The notes beneath the pieces are model-generated. The model made no database searches. It was not told the origin of the DNA and was given only the letters and a program-made list of their open reading frames with translations. From assembly GCF_056712565.1 (NCBI RefSeq), contig NZ_CM160072.1: DNA of 64,000 bases, one strand, 5' to 3'. Shown piece by piece: positions 7,820 to 52,057 of this stretch. The position numbers and the translations under genes were made by a program. The stretch's first letter is position 1. Every line of letters starts with the position of its first letter.

Positions 7820-8968
7820 TTGATTAAGTCAGCGCTATTGGTTCTGGAAGACGGAACCCAGTTTCACGGTCGGGCCATAGGGGCAACAGGTTCGGCGGTT
7901 GGGGAAGTCGTTTTCAATACTTCAATGACCGGTTATCAAGAAATCCTCACTGATCCTTCCTATTCTCGTCAAATCGTTACTCTTACTTATCCCCATATTG
8001 GCAATGTCGGCACTAATGACGCCGATGAAGAATCTTCTCAGGTTCATGCCCAAGGTCTGGTGATTCGCGACCTGCCGCTGATTGCCAGCAACTTCCGTAA
8101 TACCGAAGACCTCTCTTCTTACCTGAAGCGCCATAACATCGTGGCGATTGCCGATATCGATACCCGTAAGCTGACGCGTTTACTGCGTGAGAAAGGTGCT
8201 CAGAATGGCTGCATTATCGCAGGCGATAACCCGGATGCGGCGCTGGCATTAGAAAAAGCCCGCGCGTTCCCAGGTCTGAACGGCATGGATCTGGCAAAAG
8301 AAGTAACCACCGCAGAACCCTATAGCTGGACACAAGGGAGCTGGACACTGACCGGCGGCCTGCCAGAAGCGAAAAAAGAAGACGAGCTGCCGTACCACGT
8401 CGTGGCCTACGATTTCGGTGCCAAGCGCAACATCCTGCGTATGCTGGTGGATAGAGGCTGTCGCCTGACCATCGTTCCGGCGCAAACTTCTGCGGAAGAT
8501 GTGCTGAAAATGAATCCGGACGGCATCTTCCTCTCCAACGGTCCTGGCGACCCGGCCCCGTGCGATTACGCCATTACCGCTATCCAGAAATTCCTCGAAA
8601 CTGATATTCCGGTATTCGGCATCTGCCTCGGTCATCAGCTGCTGGCGCTGGCGAGCGGTGCGAAGACTGTCAAAATGAAATTTGGTCACCACGGCGGCAA
8701 CCATCCGGTTAAAGATGTTGAGAAAAATGTGGTGATGATCACCGCCCAGAACCACGGTTTTGCGGTGGATGAAGCAACATTACCTGCAAACCTGCGTGTC
8801 ACACATAAATCCCTGTTCGACGGTACGTTACAGGGCATTCATCGTACCGATAAACCGGCGTTCAGCTTCCAGGGACACCCGGAAGCCAGCCCTGGTCCAC
8901 ACGACGCCGCGCCGTTGTTTGACCACTTTATCGCGTTAATTGAGCAGTACCGTAAAACCGCTAAGTAA
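7820..8968 (+). CDS. carA: carbamoyl-phosphate synthase small (glutaminase) subunit
   Basis: 382 aa counted from the in-frame TTG at 7820 (carA is known to use a UUG start; protein begins [21 protein letters not shown]); the track ORF from ATG 7793 adds 9 codons. Catalytic Cys in GICLGHQ present. Confidence 0.93.
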
Positions 8969-8985
8969 TCAGGAGTAAAAGAGCC

Positions 8986-11900
8986 ATGCCAAAACGTACA
9001 GATATAAAAAGTATCCTGATTCTGGGTGCGGGCCCGATTGTTATCGGTCAGGCGTGTGAGTTTGACTACTCTGGCGCGCAAGCGTGTAAAGCCCTGCGTG
9101 AAGAGGGTTACCGCGTCATTCTCGTGAACTCCAACCCGGCGACTATCATGACCGACCCGGAAATGGCTGATGCAACCTACATCGAGCCGATTCACTGGGA
9201 AGTGGTACGCAAGATTATTGAAAAAGAGCGCCCGGACGCGGTGCTGCCAACCATGGGGGGGCAGACGGCGCTGAACTGTGCGCTGGAGCTTGAGCGTCAG
9301 GGCGTGCTGGAAGAGTTCGGCGTCACCATGATTGGTGCCACTGCCGATGCGATTGATAAAGCCGAAGACCGCCGCCGTTTCGACGTAGCGATGAAGAAAA
9401 TCGGTCTGGAAACTGCGCGTTCCGGTATCGCTCATTCAATGGAAGAAGCGCTGGCGGTTGCCGCTGAAGTTGGCTTCCCGTGCATTATTCGCCCATCCTT
9501 TACCATGGGCGGTAGCGGTGGCGGTATCGCTTATAACCGTGAAGAATTTGAAGAAATTTGCGCCCGCGGTCTGGATCTTTCTCCGACTAAAGAGCTGCTG
9601 ATTGATGAGTCGCTGATCGGCTGGAAAGAGTACGAGATGGAAGTGGTGCGTGATAAAAACGACAACTGCATCATCGTCTGCTCTATCGAAAACTTTGATG
9701 CGATGGGCATCCACACCGGTGACTCCATCACTGTCGCGCCAGCCCAAACGCTGACCGATAAAGAATATCAAATCATGCGTAACGCCTCGATGGCGGTACT
9801 GCGTGAAATCGGCGTTGAAACCGGTGGTTCCAACGTCCAGTTTGCGGTGAACCCGAAAAACGGTCGCCTGATTGTTATCGAAATGAACCCACGCGTGTCT
9901 CGCTCCTCTGCGCTGGCGTCGAAAGCCACTGGTTTCCCGATTGCCAAAGTGGCGGCGAAACTGGCGGTGGGTTACACCCTCGACGAGCTGATGAACGACA
10001 TCACCGGTGGGCGTACTCCGGCCTCCTTCGAGCCGTCCATCGACTATGTGGTTACTAAAATTCCTCGCTTCAACTTCGAGAAATTCGCCGGTGCTAACGA
10101 CCGTCTGACCACTCAGATGAAATCGGTTGGCGAAGTGATGGCGATTGGTCGCACGCAGCAGGAATCCCTACAAAAAGCGCTGCGCGGCCTGGAAGTGGGC
10201 GCAACTGGCTTCGATCCGAAAGTGAGTCTCGACGACCCGGAAGCGCTGACTAAAATCCGCCGCGAACTGAAAGATGCTGGCGCAGAGCGTATCTGGTATA
10301 TCGCTGATGCCTTCCGCGCGGGCCTGTCTGTAGACGGTGTATTTAATTTGACCAACATTGACCGCTGGTTCCTGGTACAGATTGAAGAGCTGGTGCGTCT
10401 GGAAGAGAAAGTCGCAGAAGTGGGCATCACTGGCCTGCACGCTGAATTCCTGCGCCAGCTGAAACGCAAAGGCTTTGCCGATGCGCGTCTGGCAAAACTC
10501 GCGGGCGTGCGTGAAGCAGAAATCCGCAAGCTGCGCGACCAGTATGACCTGCACCCGGTTTACAAGCGCGTGGATACTTGTGCGGCAGAGTTCGCCACCG
10601 ACACCGCTTACATGTACTCCACTTATGAAGAAGAGTGCGAAGCGAATCCGTCCACCGATCGTGAAAAAATCATGGTGCTCGGCGGCGGCCCGAACCGTAT
10701 CGGTCAGGGTATCGAATTCGACTACTGCTGTGTACACGCCTCGCTGGCGCTGCGCGAAGACGGTTATGAAACCATTATGGTTAACTGTAACCCGGAAACC
10801 GTCTCCACCGACTACGACACCTCTGACCGTCTCTACTTCGAGCCGGTAACTCTGGAAGACGTGCTGGAAATTGTGCGTATTGAGAAGCCGAAAGGCGTTA
10901 TCGTCCAGTACGGCGGTCAGACCCCGCTGAAACTGGCGCGCGCGCTGGAAGCTGCTGGCGTACCGGTTATCGGTACCAGCCCGGATGCCATCGACCGTGC
11001 GGAAGACCGTGAACGCTTCCAGCATGCGGTTGAGCGTCTGAAACTGAAACAACCGGCGAACGCCACCGTTACCACCATCGAAATGGCGGTTGAGAAAGCG
11101 AAAGAGATTGGCTACCCGCTGGTGGTGCGTCCGTCTTACGTTCTCGGCGGTCGGGCGATGGAAATCGTCTATGACGAAGCTGACCTGCGTCGCTACTTCC
11201 AGACAGCGGTCAGCGTATCTAACGATGCGCCAGTGTTGCTGGACCACTTCCTTGATGACGCAGTAGAAGTTGACGTGGATGCCATCTGCGACGGCGAAAT
11301 GGTGCTGATTGGCGGCATCATGGAGCATATTGAGCAGGCGGGTGTGCACTCCGGTGACTCCGCATGTTCACTGCCAGCTTACACCTTAAGTCAGGAAATT
11401 CAGGATGTGATGCGCCAGCAGGTGCAGAAACTGGCCTTCGAACTGCAGGTGCGCGGCCTGATGAACGTGCAGTTTGCGGTGAAAAACAACGAAGTCTACC
11501 TGATTGAAGTTAACCCGCGTGCGGCGCGTACCGTTCCGTTCGTCTCCAAAGCCACCGGCGTACCGCTGGCAAAAGTGGCGGCGCGTGTGATGGCTGGCAA
11601 ATCGCTGGCTGAGCAGGGCGTAACCAAAGAAGTTATCCCGCCGTACTACTCGGTGAAAGAAGTGGTGCTGCCGTTCAATAAATTCCCGGGCGTTGACCCG
11701 CTGTTAGGGCCAGAAATGCGCTCTACCGGGGAAGTAATGGGCGTGGGCCGCACCTTCGCTGAAGCGTTTGCCAAAGCGCAGCTGGGCAGCAACTCCACCA
11801 TGAAGAAACACGGTCGTGCGCTGCTTTCCGTGCGCGAAGGCGATAAAGAACGCGTGGTGGACCTGGCGGCAAAACTGCTGAAACAGGGCTTCGAGCTGGA

Positions 11901-48500: not shown

Positions 48501-49346
48501 ATGGCTGAAGCGCAAAATGCTCCCCTGCTGCCGGGATACTCGTTTAACGCCCATCTGGTGGCGGGTTTAACGCCGATTGAGGCCAACGGTTATCTCGATT
48601 TTTTTATCGACCGACCGCTGGGAATGAAAGGTTATATTCTCAATCTCACCATTCGCGGTCAGGGGGTGGTGAAAAATCAGGGACGAGAATTTGTCTGCCG
48701 ACCGGGTGATATTTTGCTGTTCCCGCCTGGAGAGATTCATCACTACGGTCGTCATCCGGAGGCTCACGAATGGTATCACCAGTGGGTTTACTTTCGTCCG
48801 CGCGCCTACTGGCATGAATGGCTTAACTGGCCGTCGATATTTGCCAATACCGGTTTCTTTCGCCCGGATGAAGCGCACCAGCCGCATTTCAGCGACCTGT
48901 TTGGGCAAATCATTAATGCCGGACAAGGGGAAGGGCGCTATTCGGAATTGCTGGCGATAAATCTGCTTGAGCAATTGTTACTGCGGCGCATGGAAGCGAT
49001 TAACGAGTCGCTCCATCCACCGATGGATAATCGGGTACGCGAGGCTTGTCAGTACATCAGCGATCACCTGGCAGACAGTAATTTTGATATCGCCAGCGTC
49101 GCACAGCATGTCTGCCTGTCGCCGTCGCGTCTGTCGCATTTGTTCCGCCAGCAGTTAGGGATTAGCGTATTAAGCTGGCGCGAGGACCAGCGCATCAGTC
49201 AGGCGAAGCTGCTTTTGAGCACCACCCGGATGCCTATCGCCACCGTCGGTCGCAATGTCGGTTTTGATGATCAACTCTATTTCTCGCGAGTATTTAAAAA
49301 ATGCACCGGGGCGAGTCCGAGCGAGTTTAGGGCAGGTTGTGAATAA
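48501..49346 (+). CDS. araC: arabinose operon regulator AraC; C-terminus shortened and recoded by the adjacent islet
   Basis: 281 aa from ATG 48501 ([19 protein letters not shown]...), ending ...[11 protein letters not shown]; the K-12 form I recall is 292 aa, ending ...[19 protein letters not shown]. Confidence 0.93.
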
Positions 49347-49392
49347 TAAGAAAGAAGGGGGGGAACCCCCTTGCTTTCTTCATCTGACGTTA
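49347..49392 (+). terminator. putative rho-independent terminator immediately after the araC stop
   Basis: aagaaagaaggggggg-aa-cccccttgctttctt hairpin followed by a T-rich tract. Confidence 0.55.
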
Positions 49393-49860
49393 TTTATATA
49401 TTTCACGGGGGATTAATTTTAGTTATTTTTAGTTGAATCGTTTTACCTGAATTATTTTTTTTCTTGATAAAATATCGACAACGATTTCTTTTTGTAAAAA
49501 TAAAACGAAGGCTTATGTATCGGGATACCCATCATGAACATATTGTCCGGTTGCATCAGGAGAATATATCAAGCGGTTTGTTCATCGTAGGAACACCACA
49601 TTGAGCGGTTATGGCAGGCACTTCACGCCACCATAAATGCCGTTCGATGTGGCAGTTGTTGAAAAAAGTACGGCATTCTATGAAAAACGCCAGTTACTCC
49701 CTCAGAGGAGAACATGGTCTGGCAAAAGTGTAGCGGCATCAGGCGCAGCTATCTTTGTAAATTCATTCATAAAATGAATTGTATACAAAAAAATATTGAA
49801 AAATAATATTTTTCCTTATTGATATTATTTGCTATACGTTTTTTTTGAGGGGAGATTGTG

Positions 49861-50709
49861 ATGAGCAAACGTAACGATATTACTGATGGAATATTTGCAA
49901 CAACGAAAAAGTATGGATTAGTTTATACCGAAGAGTTAGGTTGGATCGATTTGGGGCATGCTCAGGGACAAGATGCCAGAATATTAAAAAGAAAATTGGA
50001 GCAAGAACATTTTTCAACATATTACGATGAATTTCATGATTGGTATTTTCCTGTTGATTATCATCAGGAAATGGGAATTCGGAAAAAAATATTAGGAGTA
50101 GATCTTACATTTCATACCGGTGTTTATACGAAGGTTATGGTTCGTTCATGTCTTTCACCCACTCTTAAAGCAAGAGTTGCCTTAACGTTAATGTATGGAA
50201 CTGCGAAGAGGTTTGAAGCATGGCAAAACTCATTTATTTTTAACTGGTATACTGATAGCGGATTTAGTGCAGAAGATTTAGTCTCAGACTTGATTGGTTT
50301 TTATCGTGTATTTGGAACAGGCCCCGATCCACTTTTATTGGCAAAACCTTTATCTTACACAAAAGCCTTACAAATATGGGATACATATGGAGCGCCAGGG
50401 AATTTTAAAAATACTGAGTTTACGCCATTCTTATTTACAACCCATCCTCCTTTTAAAAAAAATCAACTAATAAAAAAGAAGCTTCCAGAATGGTTAAATT
50501 ATATAAAGCCATTAGATGAGTCTTTTTCAATATTGTTATATAATCAATATAATAATAGACCTGTTACTAATTATTATAAAGATAAAAACAGAATAAATCA
50601 TGAGTTGTATAGTTCATTATCAAGTTCGGGAGCTATAAAGTTTTCAGAATCTCCCTTTGAAAGACCGCTTTTTCTTTTCTTAAACCCTCATTATCCGCAC
50701 AGGTCGTGA
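49861..50709 (+). CDS. hypothetical protein, 282 aa, no signal peptide, family unassigned
   Basis: Uninterrupted 283-codon ORF in roughly 30% GC DNA (unlikely by chance); RBS gaggggag 6 nt upstream of ATG 49861 (GTG at 49858 also in frame); product rich in K/N/Y/F: MSKRNDITDGIFATTKKYGLVYTEELGWIDLGHAQGQDARILKRKLEQEHF... Confidence 0.7.
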   Translation: MSKRNDITDGIFATTKKYGLVYTEELGWIDLGHAQGQDARILKRKLEQEHFSTYYDEFHDWYFPVDYHQEMGIRKKILGVDLTFHTGVYTKVMVRSCLSPTLKARVALTLMYGTAKRFEAWQNSFIFNWYTDSGFSAEDLVSDLIGFYRVFGTGPDPLLLAKPLSYTKALQIWDTYGAPGNFKNTEFTPFLFTTHPPFKKNQLIKKKLPEWLNYIKPLDESFSILLYNQYNNRPVTNYYKDKNRINHELYSSLSSSGAIKFSESPFERPLFLFLNPHYPHRS

Positions 50710-50715
50710 GTAGAG

Positions 50716-51138
50716 ATGTCAAAATATATTTATATTTTATTATCATTTTTAGTTTTATTCTTTATATTTTTCTATGCTTATATCTCATTGATGTCAAAGG
50801 AACATCACTATACACAGCATGAACTTTCCCCATTTTTCCTTTATACGCCAGAGAGTTTGCGAAATTTGCCAAACATATCAAACGTAGCCGAGTATAGCTA
50901 TTACTATAATGTTGATGATATGCAAACAAGAGTGATTGTTACATGGCGAAATATAGATAACATTTTTCTTCAGAAAGCAAAGCTAATAGATTTTTTGAAA
51001 AGAATGGGACCGAGTCTACAAAACGATTGTATATGGTTTTTTCATGATAAAAGTGATTATGCAAATAATTTCCAGCGTTATTGCATCATTGAGCACCGTG
51101 ATTCTCTGCAGGTGGAATATTTTGAGACTATCGAATGA
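50716..51138 (+). CDS. hypothetical membrane-anchored protein, 140 aa, family unassigned
   Basis: Starts 6 nt after the upstream ORF stop (operon / translational coupling); N-terminal hydrophobic segment YIYILLSFLVLFFIFFYAYISL followed by an approximately 110-aa soluble domain. Confidence 0.65.
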   Translation: MSKYIYILLSFLVLFFIFFYAYISLMSKEHHYTQHELSPFFLYTPESLRNLPNISNVAEYSYYYNVDDMQTRVIVTWRNIDNIFLQKAKLIDFLKRMGPSLQNDCIWFFHDKSDYANNFQRYCIIEHRDSLQVEYFETIE

Positions 51139-51159
51139 TAGGCAGAGGGTGTCTTTTGT

Positions 51160-51207
51160 GCCGGTTGTGAAGAAAAAGTGAATGATGTAGCCGTCAAGTT
51201 GTCATAA
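51160..51207 (+). other. displaced native 3' end of araC (non-translated remnant)
   Basis: gccggttgtgaagaaaaagtgaatgatgtagccgtcaagttgtcataa encodes ...AGCEEKVNDVAVKLS*, the K-12 AraC C-terminus, now separated from araC by the islet; yabI starts 85 bp after it as in K-12. Confidence 0.8.
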
Positions 51208-51292
51208 TTGGTAACGAATCAGATAATTGACGGCTTGACGGAGTAGCATAGGGTTTGCAGAATCCCTGCTTCGTCCATTTGATAGGCACATT

Positions 51293-52057
51293 ATGCAAGC
51301 ATTGCTGGAACACTTTATTACCCAATCCACCGTGTATTCATTGATGGCGGTGGTGTTGGTGGCCTTTCTGGAGTCGCTGGCGCTGGTCGGTTTGATTCTA
51401 CCCGGTACGGTGCTGATGGCGGGGCTGGGAGCGCTGATTGGTAGCGGTGAGTTAAGTTTCTGGTACGCCTGGCTGGCGGGGATTATTGGCTGCCTGATGG
51501 GCGACTGGATCTCCTTCTGGCTGGGCTGGCGTTTTAAAAAGCCGTTGCATCGCTGGTCATTTCTGAAGAAGAACAAAGCATTACTCGATAAAACCGAACA
51601 TGCGCTGCATCAGCACAGCATGTTCACCATTCTGGTCGGTCGTTTTGTCGGTCCGACGCGTCCGCTGGTGCCAATGGTGGCGGGAATGCTGGATCTCCCG
51701 GTGGCAAAATTTATTACGCCGAATATTATCGGCTGCTTGCTGTGGCCACAGTTTTACTTCCTGCCGGGGATTCTGGCGGGTGCGGCGATCGATATTCCTG
51801 CCGGGATGCAGAGCGGTGAGTTTAAATGGTTGCTGCTGGCAACAGCGGTGTTTTTGTGGGTTGGAGGCTGGCTGTGCTGGCGGTTATGGCGCAGCGGTAA
51901 AGCGACTGACCGTTTGAGTCATTATTTGTCCCGCGGTCGTTTGTTGTGGCTGACGCCGTTGATTTCTGCCATCGGCGTGGTGGCGCTGGTGGTGTTAATT
52001 CGCCACCCGTTGATGCCGGTGTATATCGATATTTTGCGTAAAGTGGTTGGGGTTTAG
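51293..52057 (+). CDS. yabI: DedA-family inner membrane protein
   Basis: 254-aa polytopic membrane ORF; synteny. Confidence 0.92.
   Translation: MQALLEHFITQSTVYSLMAVVLVAFLESLALVGLILPGTVLMAGLGALIGSGELSFWYAWLAGIIGCLMGDWISFWLGWRFKKPLHRWSFLKKNKALLDKTEHALHQHSMFTILVGRFVGPTRPLVPMVAGMLDLPVAKFITPNIIGCLLWPQFYFLPGILAGAAIDIPAGMQSGEFKWLLLATAVFLWVGGWLCWRLWRSGKATDRLSHYLSRGRLLWLTPLISAIGVVALVVLIRHPLMPVYIDILRKVVGV

Follow-up and report, generated by a model that had tools for sequence, protein, structure and literature searches.

The 64,000-nt stretch of Escherichia coli DNA analyzed here (the window) matches E. coli ATCC 11775 at 100% identity. In it, a strain-variable composite islet of 1.8 kb lies directly after codon 281 of araC, between this gene and yabI. 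The locus contains the following features.

48501–49346, + strand: araC, a 281-aa allele ending RAGCE-TAA (ORF list and translation; PGAP annotation of the identical ATCC 11775 record)
49313–49346, + strand: apparently foreign patch at the araC 3′ end (five synonymous differences plus the stop; contiguous with the left end of the islet)
49326–49350, + strand: left repeat copy, comprising the functional araC end and a double stop (repeat family D1, 25 nt at 80%)
49347–49552, + strand: remnant of the left end of a PfkB/DHDPS/TctCBA islet (blastn to strain THO-003, locus L002, and to Klebsiella spallanzanii, L080; annotation of L002)
49355–49382, + strand: intrinsic-terminator-like site, a G+C-rich hairpin with a T-rich tail (terminator scan)
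49555–49752, + strand: degraded 3′ fragment of an IS630-family (ISEc33-like) element, between the two parts of the islet (PGAP pseudogene; blastn; alignment with a full copy)
49861–50709, + strand: ORF282, a putative toxin related to DUF4056 (“CapCone-DUF4056”, Lipocone type; homologues, Pfam, motifs)
50716–51138, + strand: ORF140, a membrane-anchored partner and putative immunity protein (always after an ORF282 homologue; AF2 model)
51154–51178, + strand: right repeat copy, a probable relic duplicate of the araC end (repeat family D1)
51160–51207, + strand: displaced K-12-type araC 3′ end, non-coding here (sequence; alignment with islet-free Escherichia, Citrobacter and Salmonella)
51199–52057, + strand: yabI promoter-like sites and yabI (DedA family), undisturbed (promoter scan; ORF and annotation)

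The reading frame of araC closes with F-R-A-G-C-E-TAA(TAA), giving a protein of 281 aa in which Arg277 is encoded by AGG. Compared to K-12-type E. coli araC, the last 36 coding nucleotides show five differences, all synonymous (window positions 49313, 49316, 49329, 49331 and 49334; gene positions 813, 816, 829, 831 and 834), and the stop is made by a G→T change at 49344 (gene position 844). Since the first 807 nt of the gene hold only 22 differences, the 3′ cluster is real (binomial P = 0.003), and it is superimposed on the ordinary B2-versus-K-12 divergence that runs along the whole gene. The K-12-type 3′ end, gccggttgtgaagaaaaagtgaatgatgtagccgtcaagttgtcataa, is intact at 51160–51207, 1.8 kb downstream of araC, and corresponds to codons 278–292 plus the stop of islet-free E. 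coli. The sequence, the ORF translation and the comparison with K-12-type araC thus agree with the first-pass annotation as to a 281-aa AraC with a synonymous cluster that includes AGG; the displaced native end was found both in the sequence and by alignment, and the proposed araC–yabI alignment confirmed that the araC 3′ end does differ from that of islet-free K-12-type strains. In the GTDB “E. coli” representative L005, what looked like a third case of a recoded end proved to be whole-gene divergence instead (araC about 88% identical to E. coli at the nucleotide level). In the L005 lineage, a fimbrial operon is found downstream of araC.

The same protein had been described as shortened, with a changed C-terminal tail in a major regulator. 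It does have 11 residues fewer than the K-12 protein, but 281 aa is the usual length, found in 50 of the 62 Enterobacteriaceae species sampled. A 292-aa AraC, with GAA at codon 282, occurred in seven of the 62 (Escherichia and the C. amalonaticus/sedlakii group), and its 11-aa tail aligns with non-coding DNA past the stop in genomes of Salmonella and the C. freundii group. From these alignments, 281 aa is the ancestral length, and the K-12 tail stems from a TAA→GAA stop loss at codon 282, so that the 292-aa protein reads through formerly non-coding DNA. The AraC encoded in the window is 98–99% identical to E. coli AraC over residues 1–281 and retains both complete domains (N-terminal arabinose-binding/dimerization and C-terminal dual-HTH DNA-binding); the solved structure of the DNA-binding domain, 2K9S, spans residues 175–281. 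The idea of an altered regulator therefore does not hold up well against the prevalence of the 281-aa form and the extent of 2K9S. Because AraC is back to its ancestral and prevalent length, no functional change would be expected, and arabinose regulation should be unaffected.

The first-pass annotation took the recoded araC end to be brought in by the inserted element. An element did insert at the araC 3′ end, supplying the stop in use and displacing the original end to the far border. However, the substitute end is not that of the two-gene element: by blastn, it belongs to the PfkB/DHDPS/TctCBA islet allele of strain THO-003. The ttt-agg and taataagaaagaagggg features of the patch are common to that TctABC-islet allele, in which a diverged homologue of the hairpin at 49355–49382 is found at the same place, directly after araC. 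The remnant at 49347–49552 (~206 nt) comprises the upstream region and the first 38 nt of a pfkB-family kinase gene (ATG at 49515). By homology, then, the recoded end of araC and the ~206 nt that open the islet are the left end of the PfkB/DHDPS/TctCBA islet, and the patch at 49313–49346 marks a homologous-recombination crossover. Such a rebuilding of the left end explains both the synonymous cluster and the imperfection of the E. coli repeat. It also means that the left repeat copy in E. coli, coming from the allele of another islet, is not the partner created by the insertion. The adjoining IS630 fragment, which gave blastn matches to IS630 transposase genes on plasmids, is internal and truncated, and it is absent from the Citrobacter and Salmonella versions of the islet.

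On the right side, yabI (coding region 51293–52057) is preceded by its normal upstream region. Removing the islet in silico leaves 122 nt between araC codon 281 and the start of yabI, as in islet-free genomes, and araC and yabI are adjacent, with a spacer of 122–132 nt, across about 60 species. This distribution points to the islet-free arrangement as the ancestral one for the family.

ORF282 and ORF140 appear to form a toxin/immunity pair. We found 307 ORF282 homologues across Enterobacterales, some of them named DUF4056 in their source records. ORF282 itself matched Pfam DUF4056 weakly (E = 0.4), and among its aligned homologues 22 of 33 matched at E ≤ 0.1, the best at 1.8e-6. Invariant in 33 sequences of the family are G27-x5-H33, D30 and S133-x2-S136-x2-D139. 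The motifs described for the Lipocone CapCone-DUF4056 family place a Gly six positions and an xD four positions ahead of the active-site His, and S/GxxSxx ahead of a conserved Asp (10.1101/2025.01.14.632903); the invariant residues match them, so that ORF282 would qualify as a Lipocone member by its motifs. ORF140 is modeled by AF2 with a pLDDT of 90.7 as an N-terminal helix (residues 2–26) and an alpha/beta domain, and it diverges fast (44% identity, versus 69% for ORF282). The two genes were adjacent and co-oriented in all 13 contexts examined, with gaps of −8 to +29 nt (an overlap in some). In one of these contexts, that of Buttiauxella (L094), the homologue is preceded by an hcp gene (PF05638) at a distance of 10 nt; the other 12 are orphan, and no hcp, vgrG or PAAR gene adjoins the E. 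coli copy. No significant PDB neighbor emerged for the predicted structure of either protein (BamE-like and TelC-like folds were considered), searches of NCBIfam, PADLOC and PHROGs with both ORFs gave nothing usable, and we found nothing relevant in the literature on the araC–yabI islet or on the CFT073 locus tags c0076/c0077. The motifs, the weak Pfam relationship and the one hcp linkage are what the effector assignment is built on: they suggest that ORF282 is a putative T6SS-delivered effector, probably acting in the periplasm, and ORF140 its putative immunity protein.

The two borders of the islet share a direct repeat. The copies at 49326–49350 (TTTAGGGCAGGTTGTGAATAATAAG) and 51154–51178 (TTTTGTGCCGGTTGTGAAGAAAAAG) are identical at 20 of 25 positions; between the right copy and the K-12-type araC end, tttcgtgccggttgtgaa, 17 of 18 agree. 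The repeat had been reported as 19 bp long with a 9-bp core; it is real and so is the perfect 9-nt core, although the repeat is somewhat longer (25 nt at 80%). As for the suggested search for the core, GGTTGTGAA was present nowhere in the 64 kb except at the two borders. Taken alone, these two occurrences are weak evidence, as 0.45 are expected by chance and at least two were seen in 8 of 100 shuffles. The repeat is nonetheless more than a coincidental match, because in three other lineages, too, this gene pair is bordered by a duplicated araC end of the same kind. In none of the four lineages does the duplication extend further upstream, as the 24 nt preceding the copies align no better than shuffled sequences.

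In these other lineages, each represented by one or a few islet-bearing genomes, the same module is inserted at the same nucleotide: C. freundii (L085–87), Salmonella enterica (L088) and C. farmeri (L090). The flanking repeat is perfect over 17 bp in C. freundii and over 15 bp in C. farmeri, and imperfect in Salmonella. In each case it is the host’s own araC end and follows the host’s synonymous codons (gct gga in C. freundii, gcc ggt in C. farmeri), and the right copy has whichever codon, GAA or TAA, is typical of the host. The islet ends are homologous between genera, and the flanks are host-typical up to the repeat. Between lineages, the effector is 69–79% and the immunity protein 44–63% identical; this divergence parallels that of the hosts, and the identity matrices of AraC, YabI, effector and immunity protein yield the same grouping. 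The gene pair lies beside ara genes, downstream of araC or araD, in eight lineages. No repeats surround the module at seven other loci (araD–polB in four lineages; Rahnella, Yersinia and Enterobacter ludwigii), and other islets at the araC site, namely the TctABC islet in E. coli and K. spallanzanii and the Yokenella retron, have no araC-end duplication.

Among 5,426 complete E. coli genomes, the islet occurs in 486, always at this locus and with at least 98.3% identity, the TctABC islet in 582, including ST131, and the contiguous K-12-type junction in 4,333. Two Escherichia variants of seemingly intermediate identity (75–81%; P0033 and P0039) turned out to be the same islet with assembly errors (98–99% nucleotide identity, with indels). 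The only ORFs within the islet are ORF282, ORF140 and the IS630 fragment. None is a recombinase or matched a mobility gene in NCBIfam, PADLOC or PHROG; the islets of Citrobacter and Salmonella have the same gene content, and neither a recombinase in or beside the islet nor terminal inverted repeats at its ends were found in any of the four lineages. The product expected of a repeat-to-repeat deletion (an islet-type araC end fused to the tail) was absent from the 5,426 genomes, where the best full-length matches, with five mismatches, were ordinary K-12-type alleles. The description of the borders as att-like is therefore apt insofar as the araC-end duplication is genuine, but the missing recombinase, the host-codon repeats and the lack of an excision product speak against functional att sites. 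Nothing in these sequences suggests that the islet is currently mobile, and nothing specifically supports an integrase-mediated origin.

We consider it probable that the repeats are the relic of a target duplication caused by one old insertion, carried since by vertical descent and homologous recombination. One insertion would have put the two-gene module directly after the araC coding end, duplicating approximately 15–18 nt from the end of araC and, in TAA-type hosts, the stop as well; the right repeat of the window would be the relic duplicate, followed by the original downstream DNA with an intact yabI promoter. In Escherichia, the left part was later rebuilt, with the araC 3′ end, the terminator hairpin and the 206 nt after the stop coming from the PfkB kinase/DHDPS/TctCBA islet and joined to the toxin module through the decayed IS630 fragment. 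The insertion presumably is old and happened once or very few times, and the allele may since have passed on by vertical descent and by ordinary homologous recombination, with conserved araC and yabI sequence on either side to recombine through. Exchange with islet-free alleles, which are in the majority, would keep the right copy similar to the araC end of each species, and the repeats would now be passive scars rather than working att sites. The original insertion may have proceeded by illegitimate or duplicative joining or through a long-lost integrase.

This reading has its difficulties. A single ancient duplication evolving neutrally would not be expected to give perfect, host-codon repeats and GAA right copies, so that recombination with islet-free alleles would have to have homogenized the right copy repeatedly, which is plausible; it is also demanding to suppose that a presence/absence polymorphism persisted in four lineages from the time the genera separated. 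The host-matched repeats would follow directly from separate insertions in each host. The cassette would then be a target-specific, non-autonomous mobile unit that entered Escherichia, two Citrobacter clades and Salmonella separately, each time exactly at the araC stop codon, duplicating ~15–18 bp of host sequence by means of a recombinase or transposase encoded elsewhere; we regard this as unlikely. If it were true, the 11-residue tail of K-12 AraC could be the scar of a cassette loss that followed silent decay of the right-copy stop. A related proposal, also unlikely in our estimate, is that the repeats are indeed att sites of a cassette that is, or recently was, non-autonomous and integrative, inserted independently in each lineage by a recombinase that is encoded elsewhere or was deleted (a CIME-like remnant). 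Direct repeats of 15–17 bp do lie at both borders, at the extreme 3′ end of a gene and with an element-supplied stop, in four lineages and at the same nucleotide; they are perfect and host-specific in two Citrobacter lineages, and recent lineage-specific insertion would account for the GAA/TAA match of the right copy with no extra assumptions. However, no element-borne core is identical across hosts, no recombinase gene lies in or adjoins the islet in the four lineages, the module resides at araD–polB and three other loci without flanking repeats, the excision product appears in 0 of 5,426 E. coli genomes, the cargo divergence mirrors that of the hosts and not a recent spread, and the E. coli left copy demonstrably derives from another islet’s allele.

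The polarity might also be the reverse, with the islet present first in Escherichia, a silent right-copy stop mutating to GAA, and a deletion between the repeats producing the 292-aa AraC. Stop loss in a non-coding copy would be selectively free, and both 292-aa clades (Escherichia and C. amalonaticus/farmeri/sedlakii) include islet bearers with a GAA right copy. Nevertheless, one TAA→GAA change in an allele lacking the islet would be a simpler route, absence of the islet is the ancestral state for the family, and the repeat-mediated deletion product is not seen today in the E. coli genomes; we find such a history decidedly improbable. Two further views are that the border repeat is a short match due to chance, or that a conventional DDE transposon left it as a target-site duplication; the weakness of the 9-nt core taken alone and the IS630 fragment inside the islet might be adduced in their favor. 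Chance is refuted by the recurrence across genera, at this very site, of a duplication perfect over 15–17 bp. A transposon would be expected to leave inverted repeats and a fixed short duplication, but the islet ends have no such repeats, the duplication is variable (15–18 bp) and longer than usual for transposons, and the IS630 fragment, as noted, is internal, truncated and confined to the Escherichia version. We hold both possibilities to be highly improbable.

Irrespective of the mode of insertion, the read-through tail on the AraC in general laboratory use (K-12/B, 292 aa) is specific to its lineage, and roughly a fifth of the complete E. coli genomes (486 + 582 of 5,426) encode a 281-aa AraC, by means of two islets at the same site. 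Through the islet, araC gains its own terminator, and the strain would acquire an effector of the Lipocone/DUF4056 type, probably acting in the periplasm, along with the immunity protein. In ExPEC, e.g., ST73-type strains (CFT073-like, ATCC 25922), and in the E. coli type strain, the pair is a candidate for a toxin system directed at the cell envelope, and its linkage to ara genes could bear on arabinose-linked expression. More generally, the araC–yabI junction is a hotspot for accessory DNA across lineages, harboring, depending on the lineage, the toxin/immunity pair, a sugar-acid utilization islet, a retron-type reverse transcriptase, a fimbrial operon or ERIC repeats. None of these findings overturns current understanding.

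The closest precedents for the architecture are e14 and phage 21, which integrate into icd of E. coli and bring a substitute 3′ end for the gene. As with the islet, a housekeeping gene is entered within its last codons, its reading frame is completed by the incoming DNA, synonymous changes cluster at the junction, and the native end is displaced as a direct repeat at the far border. In contrast to e14 and phage 21, the islet has no integrase, phage or island genes, the duplicated segment is only ~15–18 nt, no excision products were found, and it was homologous recombination with a different islet's allele, not an attP-borne gene end, that brought the synonymous cluster into E. coli. CIME-type remnants, known from the ICESt1/ICESt3 literature, are att-flanked islets that have lost their recombination module; they resemble the islet in being small cargo-only segments with direct repeats at the 3′ end of a conserved gene. 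The islet differs from them because its repeats follow host codon usage, and to our knowledge no related autonomous element uses the araC-end site (our comparisons found none).

As regards the cargo, ORF282–ORF140 resembles orphan T6SS effector–immunity pairs in its bicistronic order (effector, then a small membrane-anchored partner), low G+C content, patchy strain distribution and fast-evolving second gene. The hcp gene directly upstream of the Buttiauxella homologue recalls hcp-linked cargo effectors, but the E. coli pair has no adjoining hcp, vgrG or PAAR, and its secretion and toxicity are predictions. A DUF4056 gene in a bicistron of Salmonella SPI-6 has been proposed as a candidate effector (PMC11669294). 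With the TelC/TipC lipid II phosphatase toxin system and the “Lipocone” superfamily, the pair shares the CapCone-DUF4056 signature, invariant in ORF282 homologues, and a membrane-anchored ORF140 as predicted for Lipocone immunity proteins (10.1101/2025.01.14.632903). It departs from CapCone-DUF4056 in the weak Pfam match of ORF282, and this family is not listed among polymorphic toxins (10.1101/2025.01.14.632903). Finally, the AraC of the window has the same length and the identical C-terminus as the 281-residue AraC of the Salmonella/Klebsiella type, except that its stop is supplied by inserted DNA instead of the ancestral TAA, the codon being GAA in islet-free E. coli.

The chromosome of the E. 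coli type strain, ATCC 11775, is 100% identical to the window, where araC is followed by an A+T-rich stretch of 1.8 kb. The features at the locus are as follows.

48501-49346: araC, 281 residues ending in RAGCE, then TAA TAA (ORF list, translation)
49326-49350: left repeat copy, TTTAGGGCAGGTTGTGAATAATAAG (repeat search)
49347-49552: remnant of the left end of the TctABC islet
49555-49752: degraded IS630-family fragment, about 200 bp
49861-50709: ORF282
50716-51138: ORF140
51154-51178: right repeat copy, TTTTGTGCCGGTTGTGAAGAAAAAG (repeat search)
51160-51207: K-12-type araC codons 278-292 plus stop (sequence)
51293-52057: yabI, preceded, after the 51160-51207 tail, by its usual upstream region

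The first-pass annotation had described a border repeat, a recoded araC end, a displaced native tail and a 281-residue AraC, and all these observations are correct in the window. The direct repeat spans 25 nt with 80% identity between copies, and the right copy agrees with a K-12-type araC end (tttcgtgccggttgtgaa) in all but one of 18 positions. Its 9-mer core occurs in the window at the two borders only, which by itself is not significant.

In about 60 Enterobacteriaceae species, araC adjoins yabI with a 122-132-nt spacer. The full-length genes of 62 species encode 281 aa in 50 (TAA or TAG after GCE), 283 aa in five and 292 aa in seven. These seven are members of Escherichia or of the Citrobacter amalonaticus/sedlakii group, and every one carries GAA as codon 282. 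Aligned with post-stop non-coding DNA of Salmonella and the C. freundii group (taaaaagtgaatgatg...tgtcataa), the DNA of the 11-residue tail corresponds to it base for base; the K-12 tail is therefore a read-through extension due to a TAA-to-GAA change, and 281 aa is the ancestral form. The solved structure of the AraC DNA-binding domain (2K9S) covers residues 175-281. Of 5,426 complete E. coli genomes, 486 + 582 (~20%) carry the 281-aa allele. Given the ancestral length and the end of the 2K9S domain at residue 281, the earlier proposal of a changed regulator is not supported, and we would expect no regulatory consequence. Two short contigs with a K-12-identical araC and tail, assigned to Photorhabdus namnaonensis (L006) and Xenorhabdus szentirmaii (L007), end just past the yabI start codon region (…cacattatgca/tcga) and resemble contamination of these two assemblies by a pBAD-type vector.

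The window araC differs from the K-12 type at 28 positions. The 22 differences in the first 807 nt, mostly common to other B2-type alleles, are ordinary phylogroup divergence. Five more, plus the stop, fall in the last 36 nt (enrichment P=0.003), and this patch runs on without a break into the sequence 3' of the stop, where 49347-49552 is homologous to the left end of another islet (PfkB/DHDPS/TctCBA). The shared features are the ttt-agg Arg codon, the double stop, a hairpin, the kinase upstream region and the first 38 nt of the kinase gene; the homology breaks off at 49552. This contiguity indicates that the synonymous cluster is the trace of a homologous-recombination crossover with an allele of the TctABC type, and not, as had been suggested, a gene end borne by the two-gene element. 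The non-coding part is only ~71% identical, with indels, to that of E. coli THO-003, far beyond usual E. coli allele divergence, so the two left ends are related, neither being recently derived from the other.

The TctABC islet carries genes for a PfkB-family kinase, a DHDPS-family protein and a TctCBA transporter. It separates araC from yabI in 582 of 5,426 complete E. coli genomes, among them THO-003 (L002:8198-13776) and ST131. Its 5.5 kb exactly fill the araC-stop-to-yabI interval, replacing the native tail and the yabI promoter region; AraC is likewise 281 aa. In Klebsiella spallanzanii the same interval is held by this islet at ~80% protein identity (L080:8847-14424). In E. coli 21221 (L003:7352-9309), the TctABC allele is interrupted at the araC end/pfkB region by ISKpn26 (IS5-like), which yields a 312-aa AraC with a foreign C-terminus.

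In three further lineages the araC-yabI interval contains an ORF282 homologue (69-70% identical) together with the partner gene. The borders are:

C. freundii (L085-87): left ...cgcgctggatgtgaataaa; right, islet...attacgctggatgtgaataaaaagtg; repeat perfect, 17 bp
C. farmeri (L090): left ...cgcgccggttgtgaa, then tga; right ...cgcgccggttgtgaa, then gaaaaagtg; repeat perfect, 15 bp
Salmonella enterica (L088): left gctggatgtgaataa; right gctattgtgaataa; repeat imperfect

In all three the insert starts directly after codon 281 and both repeat copies follow host synonymous codons. The right copy also agrees with its host at the stop position, reading TAA where the host is of the TAA type and GAA where it is of the GAA type, and the flanks are typical of each host right up to the islet. 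The non-coding islet ends are homologous across genera; comparison of the flanks beyond the repeat copies revealed no further homology, and these module-bearing islets contain neither terminal inverted repeats nor a recombinase.

Elsewhere, the module sits in the araD-polB interval of Trabulsiella, two Enterobacter-like lineages and Buttiauxella (L089, L091, L102, L094), and it has other, unrelated locations in Rahnella, Yersinia and E. ludwigii; no flanking repeats are present at any of these sites. Nor is the araC end duplicated around other islets using the araC-yabI site. The repeat is a real target duplication, tied specifically to the module's arrival at the araC stop. The pair's closest relatives are always found by ara genes: four lineages have them downstream of araC, and another four downstream of araD.

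Other cargo was seen as well. The Yokenella regensburgei araC-yabI gap (L057:8827-9861, minus strand) holds a 344-aa retron-type reverse transcriptase (YGDD motif) and ~260 nt of non-coding DNA, another cargo type at this hotspot. ERIC-like repeats of ~125 nt occupy the spacer in Raoultella ornithinolytica, Enterobacter sp. JUb54, a soil MAG and Kosakonia oryziphila (L045, L048, L051, L055, about 8900-9030). In a GTDB species representative labelled E. coli SCPM-O-B-8794 (L005:9303-12874; araC 99% protein and ~88% DNA identity to E. coli), a Stf-like chaperone-usher fimbrial operon immediately follows araC, with no yabI within 8 kb.

The 486 copies in E. coli all represent a single allele at a single locus, and cargo identities separate E. 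coli from Citrobacter plus Salmonella, in parallel with AraC and YabI. Both facts favour an old insertion at the araC stop that left the target duplication, after which the allele would have passed vertically and been exchanged by homologous recombination through the conserved araC/yabI flanks; in Escherichia the left part would later have been rebuilt with the TctABC allele and IS630. This reading is weakest on the repeats of Citrobacter, which are perfect and host-specific; here the right copy would have to have been homogenised, we infer, by recombination with islet-free alleles. The main rival, independent, site-specific insertions lineage by lineage, would also account for those repeats, but we consider it unlikely. 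The founding event of the favoured old insertion may have involved either a long-lost integrase or illegitimate joining. The earlier picture, in which an element integrates into the end of a gene and supplies a substitute end, is structurally apt. An 'att-like' function is not supported, as there is no recombinase and none of 5,426 genomes contains the product that recombination between the two present-day copies would give.

As for the cargo, neither ORF282 nor ORF140 matched NCBIfam or PADLOC, or convincingly PHROG or Pfam, and a structure search with either model returned no significant PDB neighbour. Of the ORF282 family, 22 of 33 aligned members (307 homologues across Enterobacterales) matched Pfam DUF4056 at E<=0.1 (best 1.8e-6). 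The partner gene invariably comes next and diverges much faster than the effector; ORF140 has an N-terminal transmembrane helix (AF2 model, pLDDT 90.7). In Buttiauxella, hcp lies 10 nt upstream of the pair. In C. freundii (L085:5855-6300, L086) a poly-A run is the site of a frameshift in the immunity gene, and the effector gene remains intact, which suggests that the pair is decaying in that lineage.

The residues invariant in the aligned family (G27, D30, H33, S133, S136, D139) reproduce the signature given in a 2025 preprint (10.1101/2025.01.14.632903) for the 'CapCone-DUF4056' family of the Lipocone superfamily, in a clade that includes the lipid II phosphatase toxin TelC. A DUF4056 bicistron of Salmonella SPI-6 has been put forward as a candidate T6SS effector (PMC11669294). 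Together with the membrane-anchored, fast-evolving partner and the Buttiauxella hcp, these observations point to a putative orphan T6SS-type, periplasm-acting effector and its immunity protein. The islet would then be a new, uncharacterised case of known kinds: an orphan effector-immunity islet, located at a recombination hotspot and with a relic duplication at its borders.
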